64,000 nucleotides of DNA from the NCBI GenBank assembly GCA_963836185.1, contig CAWIIQ010000002.1, forward strand, positions 64,001-128,000, in the 5' to 3' direction. Both the position numbers and the translations under genes were made by a program. The notes under the pieces were generated by a model. It was not told the origin of the DNA and did no database searches. It saw only the letters and a list, made by a program, of their open reading frames with translations. This stretch comes from Candidatus Krumholzibacteriia bacterium. Its GTDB lineage: Bacteria; Krumholzibacteriota; Krumholzibacteriia; Krumholzibacteriales; Krumholzibacteriaceae. Positions 9,191-20,740 of this stretch are shown here, piece by piece; within the stretch, counting starts at the first letter, position 1, and each line of letters opens with the position of its first letter.

Positions 9191-10134
9191 ATGTACAACA
9201 GCAAGACAGTGACAGTGGTCATCCCCGCTCTTGACGAGGAACGGGACCTGGGCGCGGTGATCGATTCGATCCCCGAGTTCGTCGATTCGGTCGTCGTCAT
9301 CGATGACGGATCGACTGATGGTACCGCTCGCTGTCGCGCGTGAGAGAGGGGCCGAGGTGATAAGCCACGGCCGCAACAGGGGTGTCGGGGCCGCGTTCGA
9401 GACCGGCAGGCGCAGAGCTCTGGCCCTTCATTCCGATATAATGGTCAATATGGACGGGGACGGGCAGTTCGATCCGGCCGATATCGTCAAGCTGGTAGGG
9501 CCCGTCGCGGATGGCAGCGCTGATTTTGTCACCGCTTCGCGCTTCAAGGATCCGGACCTCTACCCCGAGATGAGCAGGACGAAGTTTCTCGGCAACAGGA
9601 TGATGTCACGCCTTATCAGCAGGCTGACCGGCCGGCGGTTCCATGACGTCTCATGCGGATTCCGGGCATACTCGAGGACGGCTCTGCTGAGGCTGAACCT
9701 GTTCGGAGAATTCACATATACACAGGAGACATTCCTCGAGTTCGCCTTCAAGGGGATGACGATACTGGAGGTTCCGGTAGAGGTAAGGGGGCGGCGGGAA
9801 CACGGCAGCTCCAGGGTCGCCTCGAACCTATTCAGGTATACGTGGCAGACGATGAAGATCATCGTCAGGACGATGCGCGATTACAAGCCGCTGAGGCTTT
9901 TTGCCGGCGTATCGGCGCTGCTGCTCGCGGCCGGACTTGTCCCGGCTGTATTTCTCATGATCCATTACGGCAGCACGGGCATGTTCACTCCTCACAAGTG
10001 GGCCGGATTCCTCGCCGGCTTTCTCTTCATACTATCGGCGTTGAGCTTTCTTCTCGGATTCATCCTCGACATGTTCGCCAGGATGAGGATCAACCAGGAG
10101 GAGATCCTGTCGATCCTCAGGAAGCAGGGACTGA
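9191..10134 (+). CDS. GT2 polyprenol-phosphate glycosyltransferase (DPM1-like); apparent +1 frameshifts near 9326 and ~10129
   Basis: MYNSKTVTVVIPALDEE...VIDDGSTDGT from ATG 9191 joins the 9303 frame (NRGVG, DGDGQ, DVSCGFRAY) by removing one base. Removing one G in GGG (10127-10129) gives TGA at 10132-10134, abutting the convergent gene. Confidence 0.8.
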
Positions 10135-11061
10135 TCATTTCACACGGCGCGCGGCGAGCGCGCCGAATATCCCGGCAAGAGACAGTTCGGCGGCGATCAT
10201 TACGAGCCGCAGCAGCAGGGCCGCGATGATCGCCGATTCCGCCGGCACCAGCAGCGGGAGGACGAGCATCAGGATCCCCTCCCTTACGCCGAGCCCCCCC
10301 GGAGCGAATACGGCCAGCATACCGGCGAGACCGGCAGTATAGTAGACCCCGGTTATCGCGAGGTAACTGCCCGGCGGCACCGGACCGAGCGAGACAAGGA
10401 GCACGTAGAGCCCGACTCCCTGCAGCAGCCCAGGTATGATATAGAGGGCGGTCAGTCCGAGCATCGTGCCGTATCCCGGAAGGTTCCCCGGCCGTTCCCT
10501 GCCTGTCAGCCTGAAGATCAGTCCCGCGAGCCTGTGCAGCACGGGTGGAGAGAGCAGAGCCAGGGTTAAGGCGATCCCTGCCGGAGCGGCATATTTCAAC
10601 CATGGCGGGAAGGCGCCCGGAGCTGAGACGATACCGCAGAGCATCAGTATAAGAGCGGCCGAAAGGGCGGTTACGAGTTCGGTGCCGGTCGCTAGTGCGA
10701 CACGTCCGGCGGGTTGCGGCCTGTATGCCTCGATCCTGATGAGCGCGAGGCCGAGTTTGCCCGGGATATATCTGCCGAGGACAGAGAGGAAATATGCCCT
10801 GCCCGCTTTCACGGCATGTGCATGGAGGCCGAAAAGTGATGCGAGGCGGGTCCAGGCGGCGAATCTGGCGAGATAGCCAGCCGCCACAGCGAGGAAGGAG
10901 AGCAGTACGGCCCAGGCCCTGATCTGTGAAAAATATCCCGCGAGCCTGTCCGCGTTTATCCATACAAACCAGGTCACGGCTCCCAGGGTCGCCGCGAAGA
11001 GGATCCAGCGGTATATCCTTCGGCCGCTTCCTTTACCAGGCTGATTTCCGTTCTCGTCCAA
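10135..11061 (-). CDS. UPF0104 / lysylphosphatidylglycerol-synthase-TM flippase-like protein
   Basis: LGRYIPGK and PGGLGVREG motifs; multi-TM. Confidence 0.85.
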   Translation of the reverse strand: MDENGNQPGKGSGRRIYRWILFAATLGAVTWFVWINADRLAGYFSQIRAWAVLLSFLAVAAGYLARFAAWTRLASLFGLHAHAVKAGRAYFLSVLGRYIPGKLGLALIRIEAYRPQPAGRVALATGTELVTALSAALILMLCGIVSAPGAFPPWLKYAAPAGIALTLALLSPPVLHRLAGLIFRLTGRERPGNLPGYGTMLGLTALYIIPGLLQGVGLYVLLVSLGPVPPGSYLAITGVYYTAGLAGMLAVFAPGGLGVREGILMLVLPLLVPAESAIIAALLLRLVMIAAELSLAGIFGALAARRVK

Positions 11062-11089
11062 GGTCCGCCTTTCGCCGACCGGTACGCGG

Positions 11090-13441
11090 TCAGAAGTTAA
11101 GGAATGTCTTCTGGCCCAGCATATATATGTAATGCAGGGGCCATGGGAGCCTCAGCATGACGGGCCTCATCCTGCCGGCAAAGGCCTGCCGGGCAAGAAG
11201 TATCATGAATGCCGATACGCGGTCGTTCCATCTTGCCGGGAACCTGCCGGACCCCTTTATCCTGAGGCCGAAGATCCTGGAGATCTTCTCCCTGCCCGCG
11301 GTGCCGTAAGTATGCCATATAACGGCCCGCTTCTGGGCCTGAACGGCGAGCACGGGAGGGATCTCTGATACGAGAGCCCGGCGGGAGGAAGCGAGTAGGC
11401 CGCCTGCCTCGTCTCCTCTGCCGGTAAGCGATACGGCCATCGAATGCTTGATCCGGCTCCTCTTCATCTCTGGTAGCCATGCATCGCCGAAACTGATGTC
11501 CGAGTCGTCCGCGAAGTGGTCCTCGCAGGAGAGGCAGCGTCCCATGCAGTCCGCGTACAGGTTCTGCAGCAGGCCGTAACCATGGTTGAACGGGATACTG
11601 ACAGTAGAGCCGCCGTTCATCAGTATCTCTGTCGTGCCCCTCCATCTCCCTTTCCTGTACCAGAAACCTCTGATATCGCTCCTGTCCACCGACCGGCAGT
11701 CGAGGAAATCATCCACGAGGCGCCTGTGGGTCGCGTGCCCGCACCAGAGCCCGATCCTCAGTGTGATCTCTCCCCTGCGGGGGCGGTTGCTTTTGAGCCA
11801 TTTATCGATCGATGTCCACTGGCAGGGGAGGGCGACGGCCGCGAACCGGCCTTCGGTCTCCTTGAGGATCTCGATTATTCCCGCCGAGTGGCTGAAATCG
11901 CTGTAGATGCTTGTGCGGCAGTCGAGTATATCGGCCGATGTCCTGCACAGGACCGTTTCGAACTCGAGCCCGCCCTCGCCCGGCACCGTCCTTGCGGTGA
12001 TCGCTCCATCTATATCACCTCTTTCGAGGAGTTCGGTCAGGAGCGTCGAGACGAGCCCTCCGGAGGCTGCTCCATCGCGGATATCCACGTCCGCACTGTA
12101 TCCCATCCAGGCTCCGCGGAGCCTTTTCCTGTATATATCCCGGTAAAGCCGGGCCGATGTCTTCCCTGTCCTGACCGGTATCTCCGCTTTTTCGAGAAGA
12201 GCCGCTGCATATTCGAGCTGGGACCGGGAAGATTCCCTGACAGCGGGAAGAGAGGCCTCTATCTTCCGCCTGATCTCCTCCCTGCCGGTGAGCGTTGTCC
12301 TGACCGCTCCGGCGAGGCTGTCGATGTTCAGGCCGGTCATATCGATGACAAGGTCCCCCAGCCCGAATTCATCCATCACCTCCCTGTACTTGTGGCTCCA
12401 CGCGGGAACCACGCATGGAACACCGACGCAAAGAGACGAGATCATCGCGTGGAACCTGCAGGCGACGAACGAGTCGAAGCCCGAGATGACCTCTCTGAGT
12501 CCGGCGGCGGAGAGCTCCCTGTCGATAAAAAAAGCCCTGTCCCTGTTGCGCATCTGTTCCAGAACTGCCGAGCATATATGGTAATCGTTGTTACGCGACC
12601 TCTTTTCCGGCCCCAGCCAGCTGTGCGCGATCAGCACGGCCCTGCCGCCGGTCTCCTCTATCATGCGGTCGAGGAGGGAGGCAAGCAGGCCGGCGAGGTC
12701 GATCCCCGCTGCCGAGAGGTTGTCCGCGAGGACCTGGCTCGGCGCCGCTCCTATGACGGTACCTTCGCCCTGCGGGATCGCGGCTCCTGATACTTCTTCA
12801 GGCATTGTTTCATCGAGGATGAAGGCGAGATCGGCTGCGGGCCTGAAACGGGTGATCCCCGCGCTTTTGAGCTGTCCGGCCGTGGCCGGGCCCCTTGCGA
12901 AGGTCATGCGGCATCTCTTCAGGATAAATCGTGCCGTATTCCTGTTGAAAAGGCCCTTGAGGGGGCCTATGGCTTGTGAGAGCCTTATGACGGGGGTGCC
13001 GCACAGTATCCCGGGCAGGCTGCAGGCCGCATTATAGAGGAGGGCGGCCGGCCTGCCGTCGACGAAAGAGATACCTTCGATATCGAGAATAGCGTCGGCT
13101 GACGCGATCGCGTCCAGCAGGGGCCATTTTCTCATAAATCCGCACGGGAGGCGGAGTCTGCGCAGAATAGCGTAGCAGGCTGCCGCGAGGGGCAGTATGA
13201 ACACGAGGGCGAACGGTGGGGCCGCGACGAGGCTGGTACCCGGCGGCTGCGTCCGCTGCCCGTCCTCTTCGGGATAGACACTCAATACATCGATATCGAG
13301 CCGTCCCCCGAGCATTTGGCGGAGGTTGTATATCGTGCTCTCGAGCATCGCTGAGGCGCCCTTGTTCCCCGAGTAAGAGCCTCCGATGACAGCGATACGC
13401 CGAAATCCGGGTCTTTTGATCATATTTATCGTCTTTCCCAC
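11090..13441 (-). CDS. Polysaccharide pyruvyltransferase fused to a coenzyme F420 hydrogenase beta-subunit (FrhB)-like domain
   Basis: N-half: GNKGASAM, SQAIGP, ADLAF, RFHAMI, SHK. C-half: AASGGLVS, ALPCQ, GLWCGH, CLSC..DISFGDAW. Confidence 0.85.
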   Translation of the reverse strand: MGKTINMIKRPGFRRIAVIGGSYSGNKGASAMLESTIYNLRQMLGGRLDIDVLSVYPEEDGQRTQPPGTSLVAAPPFALVFILPLAAACYAILRRLRLPCGFMRKWPLLDAIASADAILDIEGISFVDGRPAALLYNAACSLPGILCGTPVIRLSQAIGPLKGLFNRNTARFILKRCRMTFARGPATAGQLKSAGITRFRPAADLAFILDETMPEEVSGAAIPQGEGTVIGAAPSQVLADNLSAAGIDLAGLLASLLDRMIEETGGRAVLIAHSWLGPEKRSRNNDYHICSAVLEQMRNRDRAFFIDRELSAAGLREVISGFDSFVACRFHAMISSLCVGVPCVVPAWSHKYREVMDEFGLGDLVIDMTGLNIDSLAGAVRTTLTGREEIRRKIEASLPAVRESSRSQLEYAAALLEKAEIPVRTGKTSARLYRDIYRKRLRGAWMGYSADVDIRDGAASGGLVSTLLTELLERGDIDGAITARTVPGEGGLEFETVLCRTSADILDCRTSIYSDFSHSAGIIEILKETEGRFAAVALPCQWTSIDKWLKSNRPRRGEITLRIGLWCGHATHRRLVDDFLDCRSVDRSDIRGFWYRKGRWRGTTEILMNGGSTVSIPFNHGYGLLQNLYADCMGRCLSCEDHFADDSDISFGDAWLPEMKRSRIKHSMAVSLTGRGDEAGGLLASSRRALVSEIPPVLAVQAQKRAVIWHTYGTAGREKISRIFGLRIKGSGRFPARWNDRVSAFMILLARQAFAGRMRPVMLRLPWPLHYIYMLGQKTFLNF

Positions 13442-13566
13442 TATTTTTTTCTCCCGGCCGGCTCCCTGAAGGTTGCCGGTGGCATCTTATCATTCCCCGG
13501 CGTTGCCAGTAAACCCTCCTGTACTGTTAAGAACTTGTTTTAGTAGTATTATGGCGATTTTCGGGG

Positions 13567-13596
13567 TTGACATATCCAGCTCCATTGTGCTACAAT
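13567..13596 (+). promoter_or_regulatory. Strong sigma70-type promoter of the surface-protein operon
   Basis: TTGACA (13567-13572), 18 nt, extended -10 TG-C-TACAAT (13588-13596). Confidence 0.75.
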
Positions 13597-13699
13597 TCCC
13601 ATTGTCGAGTAAGTTAACGGTATCTCCAACTTAATAGGCGGAAGGGGGAAGTGACTAGCCCGGTTCTACTTAGTTTACCTTTAAGGTCCCAAACCTTTT

Positions 13700-13714
13700 A
13701 GGAGGTTTAGGAGG
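13700..13714 (+). promoter_or_regulatory. Tandem Shine-Dalgarno (AGGAGG x2)
   Basis: AGGAGGTTTAGGAGG 8 nt upstream of ATG 13723. Confidence 0.7.
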
Positions 13715-13722
13715 TTAACACG

Positions 13723-14367
13723 ATGTTCAAAGGAAAAGTCCTGCTTTTCTCTTTGCTGCTGGTTTTCGCAACCTCCCTTCACGCCGGTGACGTGGATGTG
13801 TGTACAAGTGACGCTGGAACGAGCTGTGCTCTGAGAGTATCGATCTGTCCGGCTGGCGACTTCGAATTCATCCGTACTGGTTGCGGCGGCGACGCAGATT
13901 ATATCTGGGTCGAGGTCAAGGATGCTGCCGGTGTTGGCATTGCTGGTGTTCCCTGGACAGATTACTGGATGAATGCCTGTGACGGCGCCCAGGAACTCTG
14001 CCTCTGCGCGAGCCCCATCGTTGCTGATTCACTGACGAACATTTATGGACGCACAACGTTCTCCGGTCGTATGGCAGCCGGTGGCTGTATACTCACTGGC
14101 GGTCTCTATGTTGCGTGCCAGGGTAAGGTTTTCCTGGATGTTGCTACCTGTACTGATCCGATCTGTATTGACGTTGTAATAGTCAGCCCGGACATGACCG
14201 GCGACTGCCACGTCAACCTTTCGGACTTTAGCTTCTTCGGGGATTCTTACAACAAGCAGCTCGGTGATGCTGGTTACAGTTCCTGCGCTGACTTTAACGA
14301 CGACGACTGGTGCAACCTGAGTGATTTCTCGTTCCTGGGTGAGCATTATCAGCACGCGTGCTTCTAA
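13723..14367 (+). CDS. Secreted Cys-rich protein with C-terminal dockerin-like double Ca-binding repeat
   Basis: Signal peptide (...SLHA), about 15 Cys, repeats DMTGDCHVNLSDF and DFNDDDWCNLSDF. Confidence 0.75.
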   Translation: MFKGKVLLFSLLLVFATSLHAGDVDVCTSDAGTSCALRVSICPAGDFEFIRTGCGGDADYIWVEVKDAAGVGIAGVPWTDYWMNACDGAQELCLCASPIVADSLTNIYGRTTFSGRMAAGGCILTGGLYVACQGKVFLDVATCTDPICIDVVIVSPDMTGDCHVNLSDFSFFGDSYNKQLGDAGYSSCADFNDDDWCNLSDFSFLGEHYQHACF

Positions 14368-14392
14368 ATTTGTTTGCTGCTAATCTAGCGAA

Positions 14393-14416
14393 CCCTTAAG
14401 ATGTGACATCTTAGGG
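14393..14416 (+). other. Intergenic hairpin (possible mRNA-stabilising element)
   Basis: CCCTTAAGATG / CATCTTAGGG arms with one bulge. Confidence 0.5.
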
Positions 14417-14441
14417 CTGCATTTTGAAAGGGAGTTGGATT

Positions 14442-14992
14442 ATGAAGAGAGTACTGCTGACAGTTGCTGTAGCTCTCCTGATCCCCTCAATCCTGATGGC
14501 TGCTCCGGTGACTCTCGGTGTGTATTTCGAAGGAAGCCTCGCTTACACGCCTCAGAGTCCCTCGACAACCTTCCTAGGCGGTCTGTACATAGTACAGAGC
14601 GACTATTACGTGACGGGCGTGGAATACCAGTCTGTTCAAGCCGGATTACAATCTGGCTCTGATCATCCTGGTCATATCCGCCCAATCACGCACTGCGATA
14701 TAGGTGATCCTTTCGGTGGCCACTCGGTCACGTTACTGGCCGCCTCTTACAGGTTATCCCTGACGGCTATGATCTCCTTGTGAATTATGAGTTCATGCTT
14801 GTGGTACCCTGTTCTCAGGCGACTAACTACACGATCGAAGTGGGACCGAATCCGGGTTCAGGGTATCTGCGAGGGACTTATGCCCCCGACAACGACTTCT
14901 TCGATATTATCGGCCTCACTTCGTACTTATGTCCGGAGGGAGTCGCTACAGAGGAAGAGAGCTGGGGAGCTATAAAGTCCATGTACAGGTAA
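14442..14992 (+). CDS. Secreted protein with C-terminal TEEESWGAIKSMYR tag (broken by several apparent indels, ~14631-14761)
   Basis: Signal peptide MKRVLLTVAVALLIPSILMA. Frames rejoin as ..GDPFGGHSVT-YWPPLTGYP-DGYDLLVNYEFM.. if single bases near 14733 and 14761 are removed. Confidence 0.7.
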
Positions 14993-15013
14993 GGAAAGAA
15001 AAGTCGCAGGTCA

Positions 15014-15162
15014 TGGCTGGATGAATTCCTCATCCAGCCAGGGGCCGTGCGGGGAAGGGAGGTGGTGAGTAGAGCTGGTATCTGCTTTAAAACTGCTCAG
15101 CACCGTTGATCTTCCTGCTACCGATTAAACGGGCTGAATAAACTGAATTGGTTATCTTCAGC
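15014..15162 (+). other. Structured intergenic region: three consecutive stem-loops
   Basis: TGGCTGGATGA/TCATCCAGCCA (15014-15040); GGTG.TGAGTAG/CTGCTCA.CACC (15061-15104); GCTGAA/TTCAGC (15133-15162) abutting the AGGAG SD. Confidence 0.6.
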
Positions 15163-15177
15163 AGGAGTGAGACAGAG

Positions 15178-15719
15178 ATGAAGAAAATTCTATTGACAAT
15201 CGCAGCGATCGCTCTGTTCGCTGTCCCGGCGTCGGCTCAGGTTTACAGTATCTGGAGCGATGCAGAAATGACAGTTGTGCTGTTACAGCGGCACCGTACG
15301 GACAGTACCAGGTCTTCCTCGTAGTGGAGCCGGGCCCGACAGGCGTTATCGCCGTCGAGTACCAGTTCGTTGGACCCGCTGACCAGGTCGCTCTGGCATC
15401 AATCCCCATCGATGATATCAACCTTTCAACGGGTACGCCTTACAACGCACCCGGGATGACTATCTCGCTGGGTTCGTGCTACTACGATCCGTTCGTGCTC
15501 TACACGTTCACATTCATGAACACGAATTCCGATCCTACGTACACGGCGTACATGATGGTGGAGCCTCACGGCGAAACCGCCAAGCTGATCGTCGCAGAGT
15601 GCCCTGGCGATCGTATTGAGCTTCCCGCCACCCTTTACAACCACTTGGGTCTGAATACCGGTTGTGTGGTCGGAACAGAAGAGTCGAGCTGGGGAGCCAT
15701 CAAGAGCATGATGGACTAG
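15178..15719 (+). CDS. Secreted protein with C-terminal TEESSWGAIKSMMD tag (one apparent missing base near 15272)
   Basis: ATG 15178 gives MKKILLTIAAIALFAVPASA|QVYSIWSDAEMT, which joins SCAVTAAPYGQYQVFLVVEPGPTG in the 15324 frame. Confidence 0.8.
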
Positions 15720-15744
15720 TCGAGACTCTGTTTTGATAGAATGA

Positions 15745-15776
15745 AGGGGGAGCCCTCACGGGCTTCCCCTTTTTTT
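15745..15776 (+). terminator. Rho-independent terminator
   Basis: AGGGGGAGCCC-TCAC-GGGCTTCCCCT followed by a T tract. Confidence 0.9.
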
Positions 15777-15811
15777 ATCATGATCCTTTTCTGGAAAAAT
15801 CCTGCTGAACA

Positions 15812-15820
15812 TGTTATAAT
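15812..15820 (+). promoter_or_regulatory. Extended -10 promoter
   Basis: TG-T-TATAAT upstream of the third WGAIK gene. Confidence 0.55.
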
Positions 15821-15925
15821 GCAGCCGTAACAGGGATTCATCAGTAACACATCTCCGGCCCGATCATCAGCACATACATCCGGATACTGCCGCAATGTCG
15901 CCAGGTTTCTGTCAGGAGGCTCGTC

Positions 15926-16463
15926 ATGAGCAGATTTCTTGTCGCGGCCGTTCTGGTCTGCGTCCTTCGCCGTGCCCGCGCATGGGCAGTATTTCAGCTT
16001 GTGGGCGGATGAGGGGAAGACAGCGTCCGAGTTCTGGACTTCGTCGCCCTATCAGGCCTTTACGATCTATGTATTTCTCGATCCTGGTTCGGACGGAGCT
16101 TACGGGGCGGAGTACAAGATGACAGGGCCCGCGGGCCATTTCTCGACAGGGAATACGCCTGCTCCCTTCATCAACAGCGCCATGATTGGTACTCCTTACG
16201 GCGCTCCGGGTATCAGCGCCGTATTTCTGAGCTGTCAGGAAGATACTGTATGGCTCTTCGCCGTAGACTGCATGGCAGGCAGCGTCGAGCCGGGGGTCTA
16301 CTCGATCGTGGAGAACGATAACAGCAGCTTCTGCGGGATCGCTACATGTGAAGAGCCCGGTAGGCCCCTGTGCGATGCGACGACATACAACAGTTTCTGC
16401 TATAACAAGAGCGATGACAGCACAGAGGAATCTACATGGGGGGCGATCAAGATACAGTTCTGA
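15926..16463 (+). CDS. Secreted protein with C-terminal TEESTWGAIKIQF tag, paralog of the previous gene (frameshift in the signal peptide near 15959)
   Basis: AGGAGG SD, then ATG 15926 MSRFLVAAVLV joins ASFAVPAHG|QYFSLWAD. Colinear with the previous protein (S.W.D, PY, EY..GPA, GTPY.APG, AT.YN). Confidence 0.78.
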
Positions 16464-16530
16464 TAACGGGATCCTGCCTCTCAGCCTGATTCGTACAGTG
16501 ATTTTTCATTGGGTATCAGCGCCTCCGGTT

Positions 16531-16539
16531 TGTTATAAT
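16531..16539 (+). promoter_or_regulatory. Extended -10 promoter for the C25 gene
   Basis: TG-T-TATAAT about 60 nt upstream of the start. Confidence 0.5.
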
Positions 16540-16600
16540 TACTGAAGAATACGATATCCCCCGGATCCCCGTCCCAACCCCTGGGAGAAGGAGAGATCAC

Positions 16601-19600
16601 TTGAAAAGAGTAGATGCTGGATCCGTGTCCAGACGGATTATATATACGTTCCTCTTAACGGCTGTTTTCTTCATGGCCGGATCCTTGTTTTCATCGCGCG
16701 GAGCCTGCGCTGCCCTGGCAGGCGTAAAGGTACTCCGCTCCGACGGGTCCTCAGTCACTTTCGAGATATCGGTGCCCTCTCCACGTGTAGAGAGCGGCAG
16801 TGACGGTTCGAGGGTCGTCCTCGACGGATACGGCACATTTTCTCCTCCCGGAGCGCTTCTGTTTCCCGCGAGGACCTTTCATGTCGCGGTGCCCGCTCTG
16901 GGCGAGCCTTCCATTTCCTGGACAGTCACCGACAGTGAAGCGATAGGTCCCCTCACGCTTTCCCGTGTCATGGGCGAAAGGTTCATAAGGTACGGAGATG
17001 ACGGCATCCCCGTCACGGAGACATATCTTCCCGAAGATCCATGGAGCGGCGGTCCGCCCATGGAAGTCGTCACCTCTGTGCTACCTGCGATGATGGGAAG
17101 GCAGAGAGTCATGCCGGTACGGGTGAGCCCGTTGACCGAGCGCGACGGCAGCTTCACCCTTGCGAGGAAGATCACCGTCACAGTCTCTTTCGGCACTGCC
17201 TCCGGTTCACTGCCGGAACGGTCCGATCCGTCTGCGTCGCCGGCGCTCTCGGGCGCGTGGAAACGTATGTACGACAGGGTCCTTGTCAATCCCGCGGACA
17301 CCGAGCGGTTGATAAGCCCGGTAAAAGACAGGGCCGTGATGCGTTCACCTATGGCTCCGGGGAAGAAACTCAAGATAAGGATCCCCGAGACAGGGGTGTA
17401 CTCTGTGCGCGCCGACTCCCTCATCGCTTCCGGGCTTTCCCCTTCGCTGTCCAACAACGGATTCGCGTTGAAGAAGCTCTTCTACGACGATACAGAGCCC
17501 GACCTGGCCAGGGAGGTCGATATCCCTTACCGGGTGATCAAGGGTTCCGGCTCGGCAGCCGATATATTCGAAGGCGACGATCTGCTCGTCTTCTTCGCCA
17601 TGGGGATAAAGGACGACGTGGATGCCGGCGACACCATGGCTGTTTTCAATACTTACAACCTCATATGGCTCGTAGAGGATGAAGCGGGGGCAGTGATGCA
17701 GGACGGCGCCGGGTTCCCTTCGGGCTCAGGGACGCGGCAGACTGATTTCCTCCATGTAGAAAAAGCGAGGAAGGATACCTGGTACAACAAGTATGTCAGG
17801 GCGGGCATGAAGGACTTCAACTTTATTGCCGGCCCGGTAAATGGCGAGAACGCAGTTGCCGTCACTATCCGAAACGTTTCGCCCGGCACGATCTACTCTG
17901 TTCACGTGCGTATTGCTGGAAACGAGAAGAGCAACGCGAGCCAGGACCTCGATTTTTATCTCCGCAATCCCCTGGGTACCCGGCTGCTCGGAAGCGGTGT
18001 AATATCCGAGACGAAGGAAATGGTATTTGATTTTAACAATATGATCTCTTTCTCGCTTACCGAGGGTACTAACGAGATCGTCGTCACGAGTCGTGAAGAG
18101 ACATATGGGTTCCTCATAAACGATCTCGCCGTGAAATACATGAGGGAGACGGCGGTGCATGATGATTACCTCGATTTCACGGTGGGGCAGGATGCCGGAA
18201 ACAGAGAGATCGAGATCACTGGATTCAGCGGGCAGGACGGATATCTTGTCGAGCTGACCGATCCTTTTGTGCCGGTCTTCCACGATATGCCGGCCGACTC
18301 ATTCATCGCTGACGGGGGATCGTACACTCTTCGACTCACTGTCCCCGCGGCGACCGACAGGCATTTCGTGGCCCTGGGCCGCGGCGCGGGGATGCACATC
18401 AACAATATCTGGATCGAGCCCGAAGCGGATGCCGCGAACAGTCTGCTGACAAGCCCCGGTCCCTACAACACGCTTGTGATCGCGCACCCGGACTTTCTCC
18501 CGCCGGTCAGCGACTATCTCTCACAGTATGTCTCGTGGAGAGAGGCGCAGGGGTACAGGATCCTCGTGGCCGATGTGGTGGATGTCTACGATGAATTCAA
18601 CGGCGGACTGGTATCAGCCGAAGCTATCAAGAGATTCATCAGGCATGGAGTCGAGACCTGGGGCGTTGAGTTCGTGCTTCTGGTAGGCGACGCGAGCGAG
18701 GACCATCGCAGGATCTTCATCGGTGATCCGCCCGATGTCAACGGGTCGGCGCCGGACTATGTGCCCTCATATACATACAGTGTGAATGTTATCGGCAGGG
18801 ATGATGACGAGGTGGTCGCCGCAGACAAGTATTACGAGTTTCTCGACGAGGCGCCCCCCTCCGGGTACGGCTCTCCTCCTTCAGGGTTACAGTACGCTCC
18901 GGCTGCCGCGTACCCCGACGTCTTCGTCGGCAGGCTGCCCGTCGGGCGCGAGGTCGAACTCAGGGCCCTTCTGACGAAGATGTACAGATTCGAGGAGCCT
19001 TCCGGCTACGATGCGTGGCGCAGGTCGATAGCGCTCTTTTCCGACGACGCCTGGTCGGGATACCTCTCGACGTATGCCTTCAACGACATAGAAAAACATT
19101 TTGAGTACGGTATGGACTCTGTAGCCGTCAAGATCGAGGAATCGCTGCCCGGAGGATTTGCCGTCAGCAGGCTTCATCTTTCCAAATGGACGGACGGGGT
19201 GCATGACGATCCTACTGCCGGTGGTTCCGATATCCTCAGAGAGTCTACCGACTCTACACGCCGGTATTTCACGCCCTACCTCAACAGGAAACTCAACGAC
19301 GGCTGCCTCTTTTTCTCTTTCCAGGGGCACGCGTCGAGGTCGAACTTCTCGACGGAAGCAGGTTTTTCCAACTTCAGCCAGTATCAGGATGTAGACAGCC
19401 TTCGCACAGACAGAAATCACATATTTTTCGGTGTCGGATGCCATATCAGCGATTTCGCGCGTATGCTCGAGTATTCCCGTTCCGGACTCGATGGACCGAA
19501 CGGGGACTGCATAACCGAGCAGCTCCTGTTTAAATCAAGGGCCGGCGCGGTCGGAACGTACGCCAGCACGGGATTCGAGTATCTGCTGGAGAACAAGTAT

Positions 19601-20740
19601 CTCTGCACAACGATGCACGAGGTGTTTTTCCAGAGGCCCCCGTCAGACCTGATCCCGCCGGAAAACGGTCAGACAGGGGCGAGATGGATCCTCGGCGAGG
19701 CATTTACGGCGGGCGAGATCGAACATCTAGGGTCGTCGTCATCATATGCTTACGGGCAGATCTACAGGTATGTCCTGCTCGGCGATCCGATGCTCAAAGT
19801 CGATCCGGGACCGCCGCTGATGACTGTGTCGGCAGACTGGGGAGACGGGATGAGTGAGCTTCCCGCCGATACGCTTCGATCCCGGAACAGTACCAATACG
19901 TGCAGCCTCATGTTCAGCGCGAGCGATGTGGTAGGCCTCGGCGATATCACCTTCGAGGTCGATGGAGAGGACAGGAGCGGCGACCTGACAGTTACGCCGA
20001 CCGTGGATGAGGACCTCGATTTCGCGAGGGGTTACGAGGCGAGGGTAGACTATACGGTCAACCTCGAGGAACATTCGCTCGTATTCAGCACACATTCTCC
20101 TGACGGACGTGAAACAGGCATGACCGAACTCCATGTCGCCCTTTCGATGATGCTGTACAACGGTTCGCTGGCGATCCCGCCAGGTGGAGATTCACCATCC
20201 GAGGGAGGCTTCCTGCTCAAGATGCAGTTCCCGGTCTGGCTCGATGAAGCCCCGGAGATCAGTTTCGACGGGCTCCTTCTCGACGGTGTGTCGGTCACAG
20301 TCCCCGACTCCCAGGATTCTACTCTCTGGGAGGCAAGGTTTACGCAGACACTGGCAGCGGGCAATCATGTCCTGACCGTGGCCGTGGGAGAGTTTGAGGC
20401 CGACTATCCCTTCTCGGTAGGGGGAAGCGGTCTGGTAATGGATGCTTTCAACTTCCCGAATCCGTTCGACGGCGGCACGAATATCTGCTATTCGCTCAAT
20501 GTCGATGCTGATGCCGGAATCATTATGATCTACAACGTCAGCGGTATCCTGATCAGGGAGGTCACGCTCCCGCGCGACCTGCTCGGAGCTGCGCCTCCCG
20601 GAGCTCCGAACGCATACTGGTGGGACGGCAGGGACCTTGCGGGCGATAATGTCGCCAACGGGACATATATCTATATGATCGAGATCGAGAAGGATGGCGG
20701 AAAAGTCAGTTATACGGGCAAGGCCGTCCGCCTCGAGTAG
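16601..20740 (+). CDS. C25 (gingipain/PorU-like) cysteine peptidase with propeptide-like N-terminus and FlgD-Ig/T9SS-like C-terminal domain
   Basis: ETGVYSV, VYDEFNGG, VLLVGDAS, VGRLPV, catalytic-like QGH and VGC, YVLLGDP, then NFPNPF...WDGRD..G..VANGTYIY. Confidence 0.9.
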   Translation: MKRVDAGSVSRRIIYTFLLTAVFFMAGSLFSSRGACAALAGVKVLRSDGSSVTFEISVPSPRVESGSDGSRVVLDGYGTFSPPGALLFPARTFHVAVPALGEPSISWTVTDSEAIGPLTLSRVMGERFIRYGDDGIPVTETYLPEDPWSGGPPMEVVTSVLPAMMGRQRVMPVRVSPLTERDGSFTLARKITVTVSFGTASGSLPERSDPSASPALSGAWKRMYDRVLVNPADTERLISPVKDRAVMRSPMAPGKKLKIRIPETGVYSVRADSLIASGLSPSLSNNGFALKKLFYDDTEPDLAREVDIPYRVIKGSGSAADIFEGDDLLVFFAMGIKDDVDAGDTMAVFNTYNLIWLVEDEAGAVMQDGAGFPSGSGTRQTDFLHVEKARKDTWYNKYVRAGMKDFNFIAGPVNGENAVAVTIRNVSPGTIYSVHVRIAGNEKSNASQDLDFYLRNPLGTRLLGSGVISETKEMVFDFNNMISFSLTEGTNEIVVTSREETYGFLINDLAVKYMRETAVHDDYLDFTVGQDAGNREIEITGFSGQDGYLVELTDPFVPVFHDMPADSFIADGGSYTLRLTVPAATDRHFVALGRGAGMHINNIWIEPEADAANSLLTSPGPYNTLVIAHPDFLPPVSDYLSQYVSWREAQGYRILVADVVDVYDEFNGGLVSAEAIKRFIRHGVETWGVEFVLLVGDASEDHRRIFIGDPPDVNGSAPDYVPSYTYSVNVIGRDDDEVVAADKYYEFLDEAPPSGYGSPPSGLQYAPAAAYPDVFVGRLPVGREVELRALLTKMYRFEEPSGYDAWRRSIALFSDDAWSGYLSTYAFNDIEKHFEYGMDSVAVKIEESLPGGFAVSRLHLSKWTDGVHDDPTAGGSDILRESTDSTRRYFTPYLNRKLNDGCLFFSFQGHASRSNFSTEAGFSNFSQYQDVDSLRTDRNHIFFGVGCHISDFARMLEYSRSGLDGPNGDCITEQLLFKSRAGAVGTYASTGFEYLLENKYLCTTMHEVFFQRPPSDLIPPENGQTGARWILGEAFTAGEIEHLGSSSSYAYGQIYRYVLLGDPMLKVDPGPPLMTVSADWGDGMSELPADTLRSRNSTNTCSLMFSASDVVGLGDITFEVDGEDRSGDLTVTPTVDEDLDFARGYEARVDYTVNLEEHSLVFSTHSPDGRETGMTELHVALSMMLYNGSLAIPPGGDSPSEGGFLLKMQFPVWLDEAPEISFDGLLLDGVSVTVPDSQDSTLWEARFTQTLAAGNHVLTVAVGEFEADYPFSVGGSGLVMDAFNFPNPFDGGTNICYSLNVDADAGIIMIYNVSGILIREVTLPRDLLGAAPPGAPNAYWWDGRDLAGDNVANGTYIYMIEIEKDGGKVSYTGKAVRLE

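Follow-up and report, generated by a model that had tools for sequence, protein, structure and literature searches.

How a short, conserved protein ending comes to stand beside a putative sortase is the question raised by one locus in the window, that is, the whole analysed stretch of 64,000 nucleotides (positions 64,001-128,000 of contig 2) from the genome of a Candidatus Krumholzibacteriia bacterium (3.5 Mb, 92.5% complete; hereafter the source genome). Three consecutive genes encode proteins that share a C-terminal tag, and the next gene (16601..20740) encodes a C25 peptidase. The original prediction, made from the letters of the window, regarded the tag as a minimal export or anchoring signal processed by this peptidase; the three tails and the 1379-residue C25 protein with its His/Cys motifs and FlgD-Ig tail were all found. 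[quoted passage not shown] That tagged proteins cross the outer membrane, are cleaved and become anchored, and which enzyme does so, are points that we infer. No published description of the tag or of the block was found in the openly accessible literature searched.

The tag has the form [VIT]-[GAS]-T-E-E-[ST]-[ST]-W-G-x-I-K followed by 3-6 residues, about 16 residues in all, and ends about 33 unrelated proteins of the source genome. A six-frame scan of this genome for W-G-x-[ILVM]-K gave 45 matches, 31 of which lay 3-6 residues before a stop codon. Using a position-specific scoring matrix (PSSM) built from the source genome, 33 matches were obtained at the cut-off of 13 bits or above; all 33 were within 12 residues of a stop, and no internal match was found in this genome at that cut-off. 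With a back-translated DNA pattern, the same genome yielded 29 matches versus none for the reversed pattern used as the control; the pattern detected the tag in 203 of the 208 genomes of Candidatus Krumholzibacteriota and in 60 of the 61 sampled genomes of Candidatus Eisenbacteria (reversed controls, 0-2 per genome). The tagged bodies include about nine cohesin-like proteins as well as FG-GAP, thioester plus Big_1, lamin-tail, beta-helix, Temptin_C and choice-of-anchor W proteins; many have no assigned family, and the tail itself was matched by no Pfam or NCBIfam model. These results bear out the claimed restriction of the tag to C-termini and its presence on otherwise unrelated bodies. The expected company of a signal peptide was supported as well: the tags follow signal-peptide-like starts, which a crude ATG-only rule recognized in 20 of 35 tagged proteins, the rest having other start codons or broken frames. 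No lipobox was found by this rule among the signal-like starts. Tagged cargo was small, with a median open reading frame (ORF) of 236 amino acids versus 784 for cargo with the T9SS domain.

The tag is made up of two parts: the first is an extended linker, [VIT]-[GASP]-[TV]-E-E, the second a helix of basic and mildly amphipathic character. In a structure model the tail was predicted as coil with a short low-confidence helix (residues 153-159) behind a flexible linker, the predicted local distance difference test score (pLDDT) being about 50. Over 298 tails, the mean helical moment was 0.371, compared with 0.293 for shuffled tails (maximum 0.315), and the net charge was mostly +1 to +2. The half W/F-G-x-[IV]-K-x-x-aromatic was more conserved than the linker, in which a beta-branched-[PAG]-[TV] triplet was held in register in both phyla. 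The Lys was the sole invariant column across 54 aligned tagged cohesins, an invariance that is partly built in, since these proteins were chosen by a pattern mostly requiring this Lys or Arg. The acidic linker, described originally as part of the signal, is not universal: the Eisenbacteria linker often reads T-P-T-R-N.

About 100 proteins of the source genome carry a FlgD-Ig T9SS domain, and a cohesin-like domain precedes it in at least three proteins. Of the cohesin family, the best 150 representatives were compared: the tag stood at the end of 111 and the T9SS domain at the end of 33, while six had neither and none had both, a ratio biased by a search profile that itself included the tag. 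Placement of the tag before a T9SS domain was seen neither in these 150 representatives nor in the source genome. On the same cohesin family, the tag stands in for the T9SS domain. Furthermore, the linker resembles measured PorU cut sites, which include PT/ATEQ in HBP35 and DD/SVED in CPG70, with the rule X/(GSA)(VLI) (PMC4560394); the corresponding place in the window tails reads V/ATEE, V/GTEE and D/STEE. With a cut motif that was defined after both the tails and the cut sites had been seen, and with one spurious short ORF included among the 35 listed tails, a small residue occupied the proposed cut in 30 tails and the four-residue motif was in register in 21, versus 5 of 5824 positions in the bodies. 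A looser motif preceded the T9SS domains of the source genome in 34 of 100 cases, compared with 6.7 for bodies and 9.5 for shuffled linkers.

The peptidase is one of seven C25 proteins encoded in the source genome. Pfam Peptidase_C25 matched residues 625-1067 with 188.8 bits, the N-terminus was propeptide-like, and the C-terminal FlgD_ig match (residues 1289-1360, 26.2 bits) lay slightly below the cut-off of 27 bits. His910 and Cys947 were invariant in 14 of 14 aligned C25 proteins, in 60 of 60 extracted catalytic domains and in all 41 members of the second-C25 clade. A profile of the enzyme aligned with PorU of Porphyromonas gingivalis (6za2) in four stretches along the full length (E 2e-56), whereas its single sequence found no match in the PDB. 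The description of this enzyme as PorU-like held for its alignment and its grouping with PorU; it is not, however, the PorU of this genome. With the PorU model NF033707 (cut-off 420) it scored 130.6, as against 553.8 for a porV-linked copy elsewhere in the source genome, and canonical PorU was ruled out. PorU2 was ruled out likewise: with NF052324, where the cut-off is 450, the enzyme reached 73.7 bits, less than canonical PorU on that model (120.2).

A tree of catalytic domains (65 domains, 383 columns; one PorU locus with no clean domain envelope was omitted) placed the PorU proteins (support 0.999), the second copies from Krumholzibacteriota (0.988) and those from Eisenbacteria (0.924) in separate clades, which together stood apart from four gingipain-like C25 proteins (0.949). 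Among named records, the closest relatives of the enzyme are from Krumholzibacteriota and more distant ones from Eisenbacteria. The active-site motif S-[ST]-G-[YF]-E was kept by the second enzyme in both phyla, and a Glu near the catalytic region (E993) was conserved in the clade. The acidic linker motif was found before the clade members' own C-terminal Ig domain in 1 of 20 and 0 of 15 cases. A scan across genomes gave 79 second-C25 loci, mostly from Krumholzibacteriota and Eisenbacteria; of five oddly labelled loci probed among these, three had tags and one belongs to the Eisenbacteria set.

Tagged genes lay directly upstream of the C25 gene in all 24 order-level loci with upstream DNA (29 fetched, five without such DNA). 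In other families, a first look gave 5 of 6 loci with tagged genes directly upstream, and 20 further loci, picked from 33 genomes for long contigs, gave 17 with tagged genes upstream, two of them with variant tails. Among 20 Eisenbacteria loci from the 61 genomes, tagged genes were within 10 kb upstream of the C25 gene in seven. The control consisted of 20 second-best matches, all porU-porV loci, and neither tag, cohesin nor dockerin was nearby on the same strand in any of them. A porV gene directly followed the C25 gene in none of the 40 loci of the second-C25 clade, in contrast to all 20 canonical loci. Taken together, the dockerin-cohesin-C25 block represents a single ancient association that most lineages have retained; loci of kin are not independent of one another. 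Conservation of the C25 linkage, on which the original prediction had been made to depend, was seen in the order and in most loci of other families. In one Eisenbacteria group (L126, L128, L133, L135, L136 and L145), one or two opposite-strand genes lie between the tagged genes and the C25 gene; judged by eye, they look like a UbiA-type prenyltransferase and an alkaline-phosphatase-family enzyme, which might have to do with the anchor.

The cohesin-dockerin nature of the block, together with its fourth gene (13723-14367), had been overlooked in the original prediction. The product of this gene has two EF-hand-like loops and an invariant C-terminal Cys, and carries neither the tag nor a T9SS domain. 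Its profile matched a dockerin (2y3n_B, E 1e-7) and an X-module-dockerin (2b59_B, E 2e-7). In its model (pLDDT 94.9), the Ig part resembled FdeC (Z 8.2) and the dockerin part 2ozn_B (Z 7.2; root-mean-square deviation, rmsd, 1.8 over 53 residues), so that the predicted layout, an Ig module and then two calcium-loop-helix repeats, is that of an X-module-dockerin. This Ig-dockerin family was found in 196 of the 208 Krumholzibacteriota genomes. A dockerin profile built from the family alone gave three matches in the source genome, two stand-alone genes and one weak internal match; a cellulosome was rejected, the source genome having no array of dockerin enzymes. The second Ig-dockerin gene (C3:60498-61052, with one stop in the match) lies behind T9SS cargo genes and has no tagged neighbours.

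The tagged bodies of the block were predicted to adopt a nine-strand jelly-roll cohesin fold when an intact homologue from the relative G004 was modelled (pLDDT 93). The model matched cohesins at ranks 1-17 (best Z 12.4, rmsd 2.3 over 121 residues), and Foldseek agreed (top match, E 5e-4). Pfam Cohesin matched none of the 54 tagged cohesin-like members, and a cohesin profile found no match among PDB sequences; the nearest Atlas cluster, which scored 0.89 and has Cohesin in 16% of its members, is a lead only. A predicted cohesin-dockerin complex scored 0.49, as against 0.00 for the best control, with at least 96% of contacts agreeing between runs and a partner pLDDT of at least 93; at 0.60 or below, 18 of 157 solved pairs attained the mark, as did both of the passing mismatches. 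This result lends weak support to the predicted contact, and the pass may reflect likeness to solved complexes. The long BACON-repeat stalk proteins P0010, P0068, P0106, P0127, P0142 and P0145 end in a cohesin and the tag, and their stalks are like spacers that would hold the cohesin off the surface.

In support of the original prediction, the tag co-occurs in the source genome with SprA, PorU and PorV-family genes: SprA in two pieces (329 bits), the true PorU followed by a PorV-family gene, and 11 PorV-family matches in all, six above the cut-off. A PorZ-like match was weak. Searches with TIGR03513, PF12081, PF19841 and PF11751 detected no GldL/GldM, GldN or PorP, but these models also stayed under their cut-offs in control genomes; the type IX system possibly has a different motor or none. 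A dedicated PorV-family reader beside the tagged genes was rejected, the nearest of the 11 paralogues being 3 kb from a tagged gene and on the opposite strand. Six PorV-family genes each lie directly behind a gene whose product, of up to 5372 amino acids, has an atypical T9SS-like end (C1:1230943-1235244, C4:3990-7343, C2:159664-161581, C1:1280399-1297334, C1:1969705-1975153 and C2:136061-138589), which suggests dedicated cargo-shuttle pairs. The gene after porU-porV (L001:4951-8253) is like a T9SS-dependent M6-like inactivated metalloprotease (183 bits, below cut-off).

On the reading that we favour, a tagged protein would be exported by Sec through its N-terminal signal peptide. The W-G-x-I-K-x-x-aromatic helix would then be recognized by a receptor in the envelope, which probably belongs to the SprA/PorV kind. 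The second C25 enzyme, which has its own T9SS domain and is probably held at the surface, would cleave x|[GAS]-T-E-E in the linker, roughly 15 residues before the end, and would attach a lipid or glycan to the C-terminus so created, as the chemistry of PorU and the motif match suggest. The anchored single-cohesin proteins would finally bind the Ig-dockerin protein to form a surface coat; their folds are predicted, their binding weakly so, and a surface location is presumed. The Ig-dockerin protein, having no sorting signal of its own, would be held through the anchored cohesins. It is possible, though we would put this with more reserve, that two parallel sortase routes exist in Krumholzibacteriota and Eisenbacteria, one with PorU and large cargo bearing the Ig signal, the other with the second sortase, small cargo bearing the 16-residue helical tag and the cohesin-dockerin coat, on diderm cells in which the known type IX motor may be missing. 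None of the three outcomes open to computation that the original prediction had named as contrary to it, such as a tag confined to one family or placed internally, was observed.

Several observations weigh against cleavage and anchoring of the tag by the second sortase. At the residue after the proposed cut, Pro was found in 46% of the tags from other Krumholzibacteriota families and in 70% of those from Eisenbacteria, and the acidic pair fades in both groups. PorV binds even short signals of 43-55 amino acids through beta-strand motifs (PMC11969387), and these motifs are absent from the tag. In family f5 (3 of 3 loci) the enzyme is no longer accompanied by tagged genes, nor is it in 13 of the 20 Eisenbacteria loci, three of these with short upstream DNA; synteny binds the enzyme to the cohesin-dockerin block and not to the tag as such, and about 30 tagged genes of the source genome sit away from the second C25 gene. 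The second copies of both phyla formed one clade with a support of only 0.14. No PorV-family gene adjoins the second C25 gene, and a canonical PorU able to do the job is present. Furthermore, Arg722 of P. gingivalis PorU, 32 residues after the catalytic Cys and proposed as the hallmark of the sortase (PMC4560394), aligns with Gly991 of the second C25 and is replaced by Gly, Ala or Ser in all 41 clade members. This residue does not discriminate here, because its counterpart was absent in 18 of 20 porV-linked PorU proteins and present in all four gingipain-like C25 proteins (L002-L005).

The alternative that survives best also takes the tag as a short sorting signal, but has it cut by the porV-linked PorU, with the second C25 enzyme given a different task on the cohesin-dockerin coat, for instance its maturation or cross-linking. 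The tag linker resembles the PorU motif before the normal T9SS domains of the source genome, the genome has canonical PorU, SprA and PorV, the second C25 gene has no linkage with most tagged genes, and several lineages have a split block while retaining tags. We nevertheless hold this alternative to be rather doubtful: tagged genes were near none of the 20 porU-porV loci, the tag lacks the beta-strand motifs bound by PorV, the carrier that brings cargo to PorU (PMC11969387, PMC5562754), and the enzyme's own active-site motif in both phyla suggests a distinct substrate.

It is unlikely that the tag is an uncut amphipathic helix docking on a membrane leaflet or an outer-membrane protein, with the cohesin-dockerin contact adding avidity. 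MinD offers a parallel, docking to the membrane by a C-terminal helix. The low-confidence helix predicted after a flexible linker, the helical moment above that of shuffled tails, the mostly positive charge, the better conservation of the helix half and the common Pro at the proposed cut are all compatible with docking, but the moment is modest, the helix has only about eight residues, and plain lipid binding would not need the beta-branched-[PAG]-[TV] triplet in register. Docking also leaves unexplained both the conserved active-type peptidase next door and the outer-membrane crossing of thioester or beta-helix adhesin-type proteins. Finally, it is highly improbable that the tag is an acceptor whose Lys takes the C-terminus of another protein from the second C25 enzyme, giving a coat cross-linked in the manner of sortase-built pili: the invariant Lys column and the conserved E993 would fit, but that invariance is partly built in by selection, no donor is evident, and the exchange with T9SS domains is more simply read as that of a signal.

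All three tagged genes are interrupted in this assembly, none keeping one frame open between signal peptide and tail. In gene 1, single bases at 14632, 14665, 14696, 14731 and 14757 are missing from the RNA contigs of two studies, and without these five bases both halves share one frame. Gene 2 showed a one-base gap against one RNA contig. In gene 3, comparison with two relatives indicates a single surplus base near 15963, an assignment based on these relatives. The frame breaks are most likely assembly errors, because the tagged genes are intact in relatives (about 180 amino acids). Contigs from three RNA runs covered 13451-15986 and none the C25 gene; RNA depth was not used as evidence of expression, because the runs had been retrieved with 13500-16700 and contigs cannot rank genes. 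Codon use was likewise set aside, EF-Tu showing no bias (0.13-0.17 versus a genome mean of 0.155). Sequencing runs containing parts of the stretch were mostly derived from sediment.

Table 1 Features of the tagged cohesin, dockerin and C25 locus (window positions).
Feature	Position	Strand	Basis
Sigma-70-type promoter-like site before the block, TTGACA-18-TACAAT, extended -10	13567..13596	+	11/12 matches, consensus only
Secreted Ig-like and dockerin protein, 214 aa	13723..14367	+	Profile and structure-model matches
Tagged cohesin-like gene 1, five extra single bases between 14632 and 14757	14442..14992	+	RNA contigs
Tag 1, VATEEESWGAIKSMYR	14942..14989	+	Frame scan, PSSM; stop at 14992
Tagged cohesin-like gene 2, frame changes near 15273	15178..15719	+	Relatives, RNA contig
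Tag 2, VGTEESSWGAIKSMMD	15669..15716	+	Frame scan, PSSM; stop at 15719
Terminator-like hairpin behind gene 2, 13 pairs, T tail	15743..15772	+	Consensus match only
Second promoter-like site, ahead of gene 3 and the C25 gene	15792..15820	+	10/12 matches, consensus only
Tagged cohesin-like gene 3, single surplus base near 15963	15926..16463	+	Two relatives
Tag 3, DSTEESTWGAIKIQF	16416..16460	+	Frame scan, PSSM; stop at 16463
Second PorU-like C25 peptidase, 1379 aa	16601..20740	+	Pfam, profile alignment, tree

The promoter- and terminator-like consensus sites suggest two putative transcription units, dockerin-cohesin1-cohesin2 and cohesin3-C25; eight promoter-like sites were found versus 4.6 expected. 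Behind the C25 gene (20820-24429) lie a 235-amino-acid gene with no Pfam hit, SpoIID/LytB and a GH3 glycosidase, which stay behind the C25 gene across the order and likely act in cell-wall turnover. Upstream (9303-13441) are glycosyltransferase-like, membrane and polysaccharide pyruvyl-transferase/FrhB genes, and similar genes are also upstream in the relatives G004 and G017.

Short C-terminal motifs on unrelated surface proteins are familiar from PEP-CTERM, LPXTG and other tripartite sorting signals. The tag is like these, and one tagged protein carries a choice-of-anchor W domain (185.9 bits); unlike them, it has no transmembrane helix after the motif, most tails ending 3-6 residues past the Lys. 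If our reading is true, thousands of hypothetical proteins in two uncultured phyla could be labelled as surface proteins, and a small tag would be on offer for protein ligation or display. The nearest comparison is with the T9SS type A C-terminal domain (TIGR04183; FlgD-Ig-like here). Both combine a signal peptide with a strictly terminal signal, the small-residue/acidic linker resembles measured PorU cut sites, and the same passenger domains bear either signal in a genome with SprA, PorU and PorV-family genes. The tag differs in having 16 residues and a predicted helix instead of 43-82 residues of beta-sheet, in the absence of motifs B, D and E, in its smaller cargo and in its link to a second C25 gene with no adjacent porV. 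The shortest type IX signals described (PMC11969387) are beta-sheet domains of 43-55 residues; a 16-residue helical signal with its own sortase, if true, would mean that recognition and cleavage are reducible well below this size.

The second C25 enzyme shares with PorU of P. gingivalis (6za2) the likeness over its full length in four stretches, the His/Cys pair and a C-terminal Ig domain of its own without the acidic linker motif. It differs in falling under the family cut-off, in its separate branch, in having Gly for Arg722 and in its neighbours, which are cohesin and dockerin genes rather than porV. As with PorU2 (NF052324), a putative second sortase, one genome holds a second PorU-like gene, but with 73.7 bits against 450 the enzyme is not a member of that family. 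Finally, the block recalls clostridial X-module-dockerins and anchoring cohesins (CipA XDoc 2b59; SdbA/ScaE type), in which a cohesin is likewise combined with a C-terminal anchoring signal and an Ig module is fused to a two-loop dockerin. Compared with these and with non-cellulosomal cohesins (2vo8, 2xdh), the host here is diderm, identity is 6-14% and there is no enzyme array; a cohesin-dockerin pair of this kind across a diderm phylum, if true, would extend the module to envelope building.

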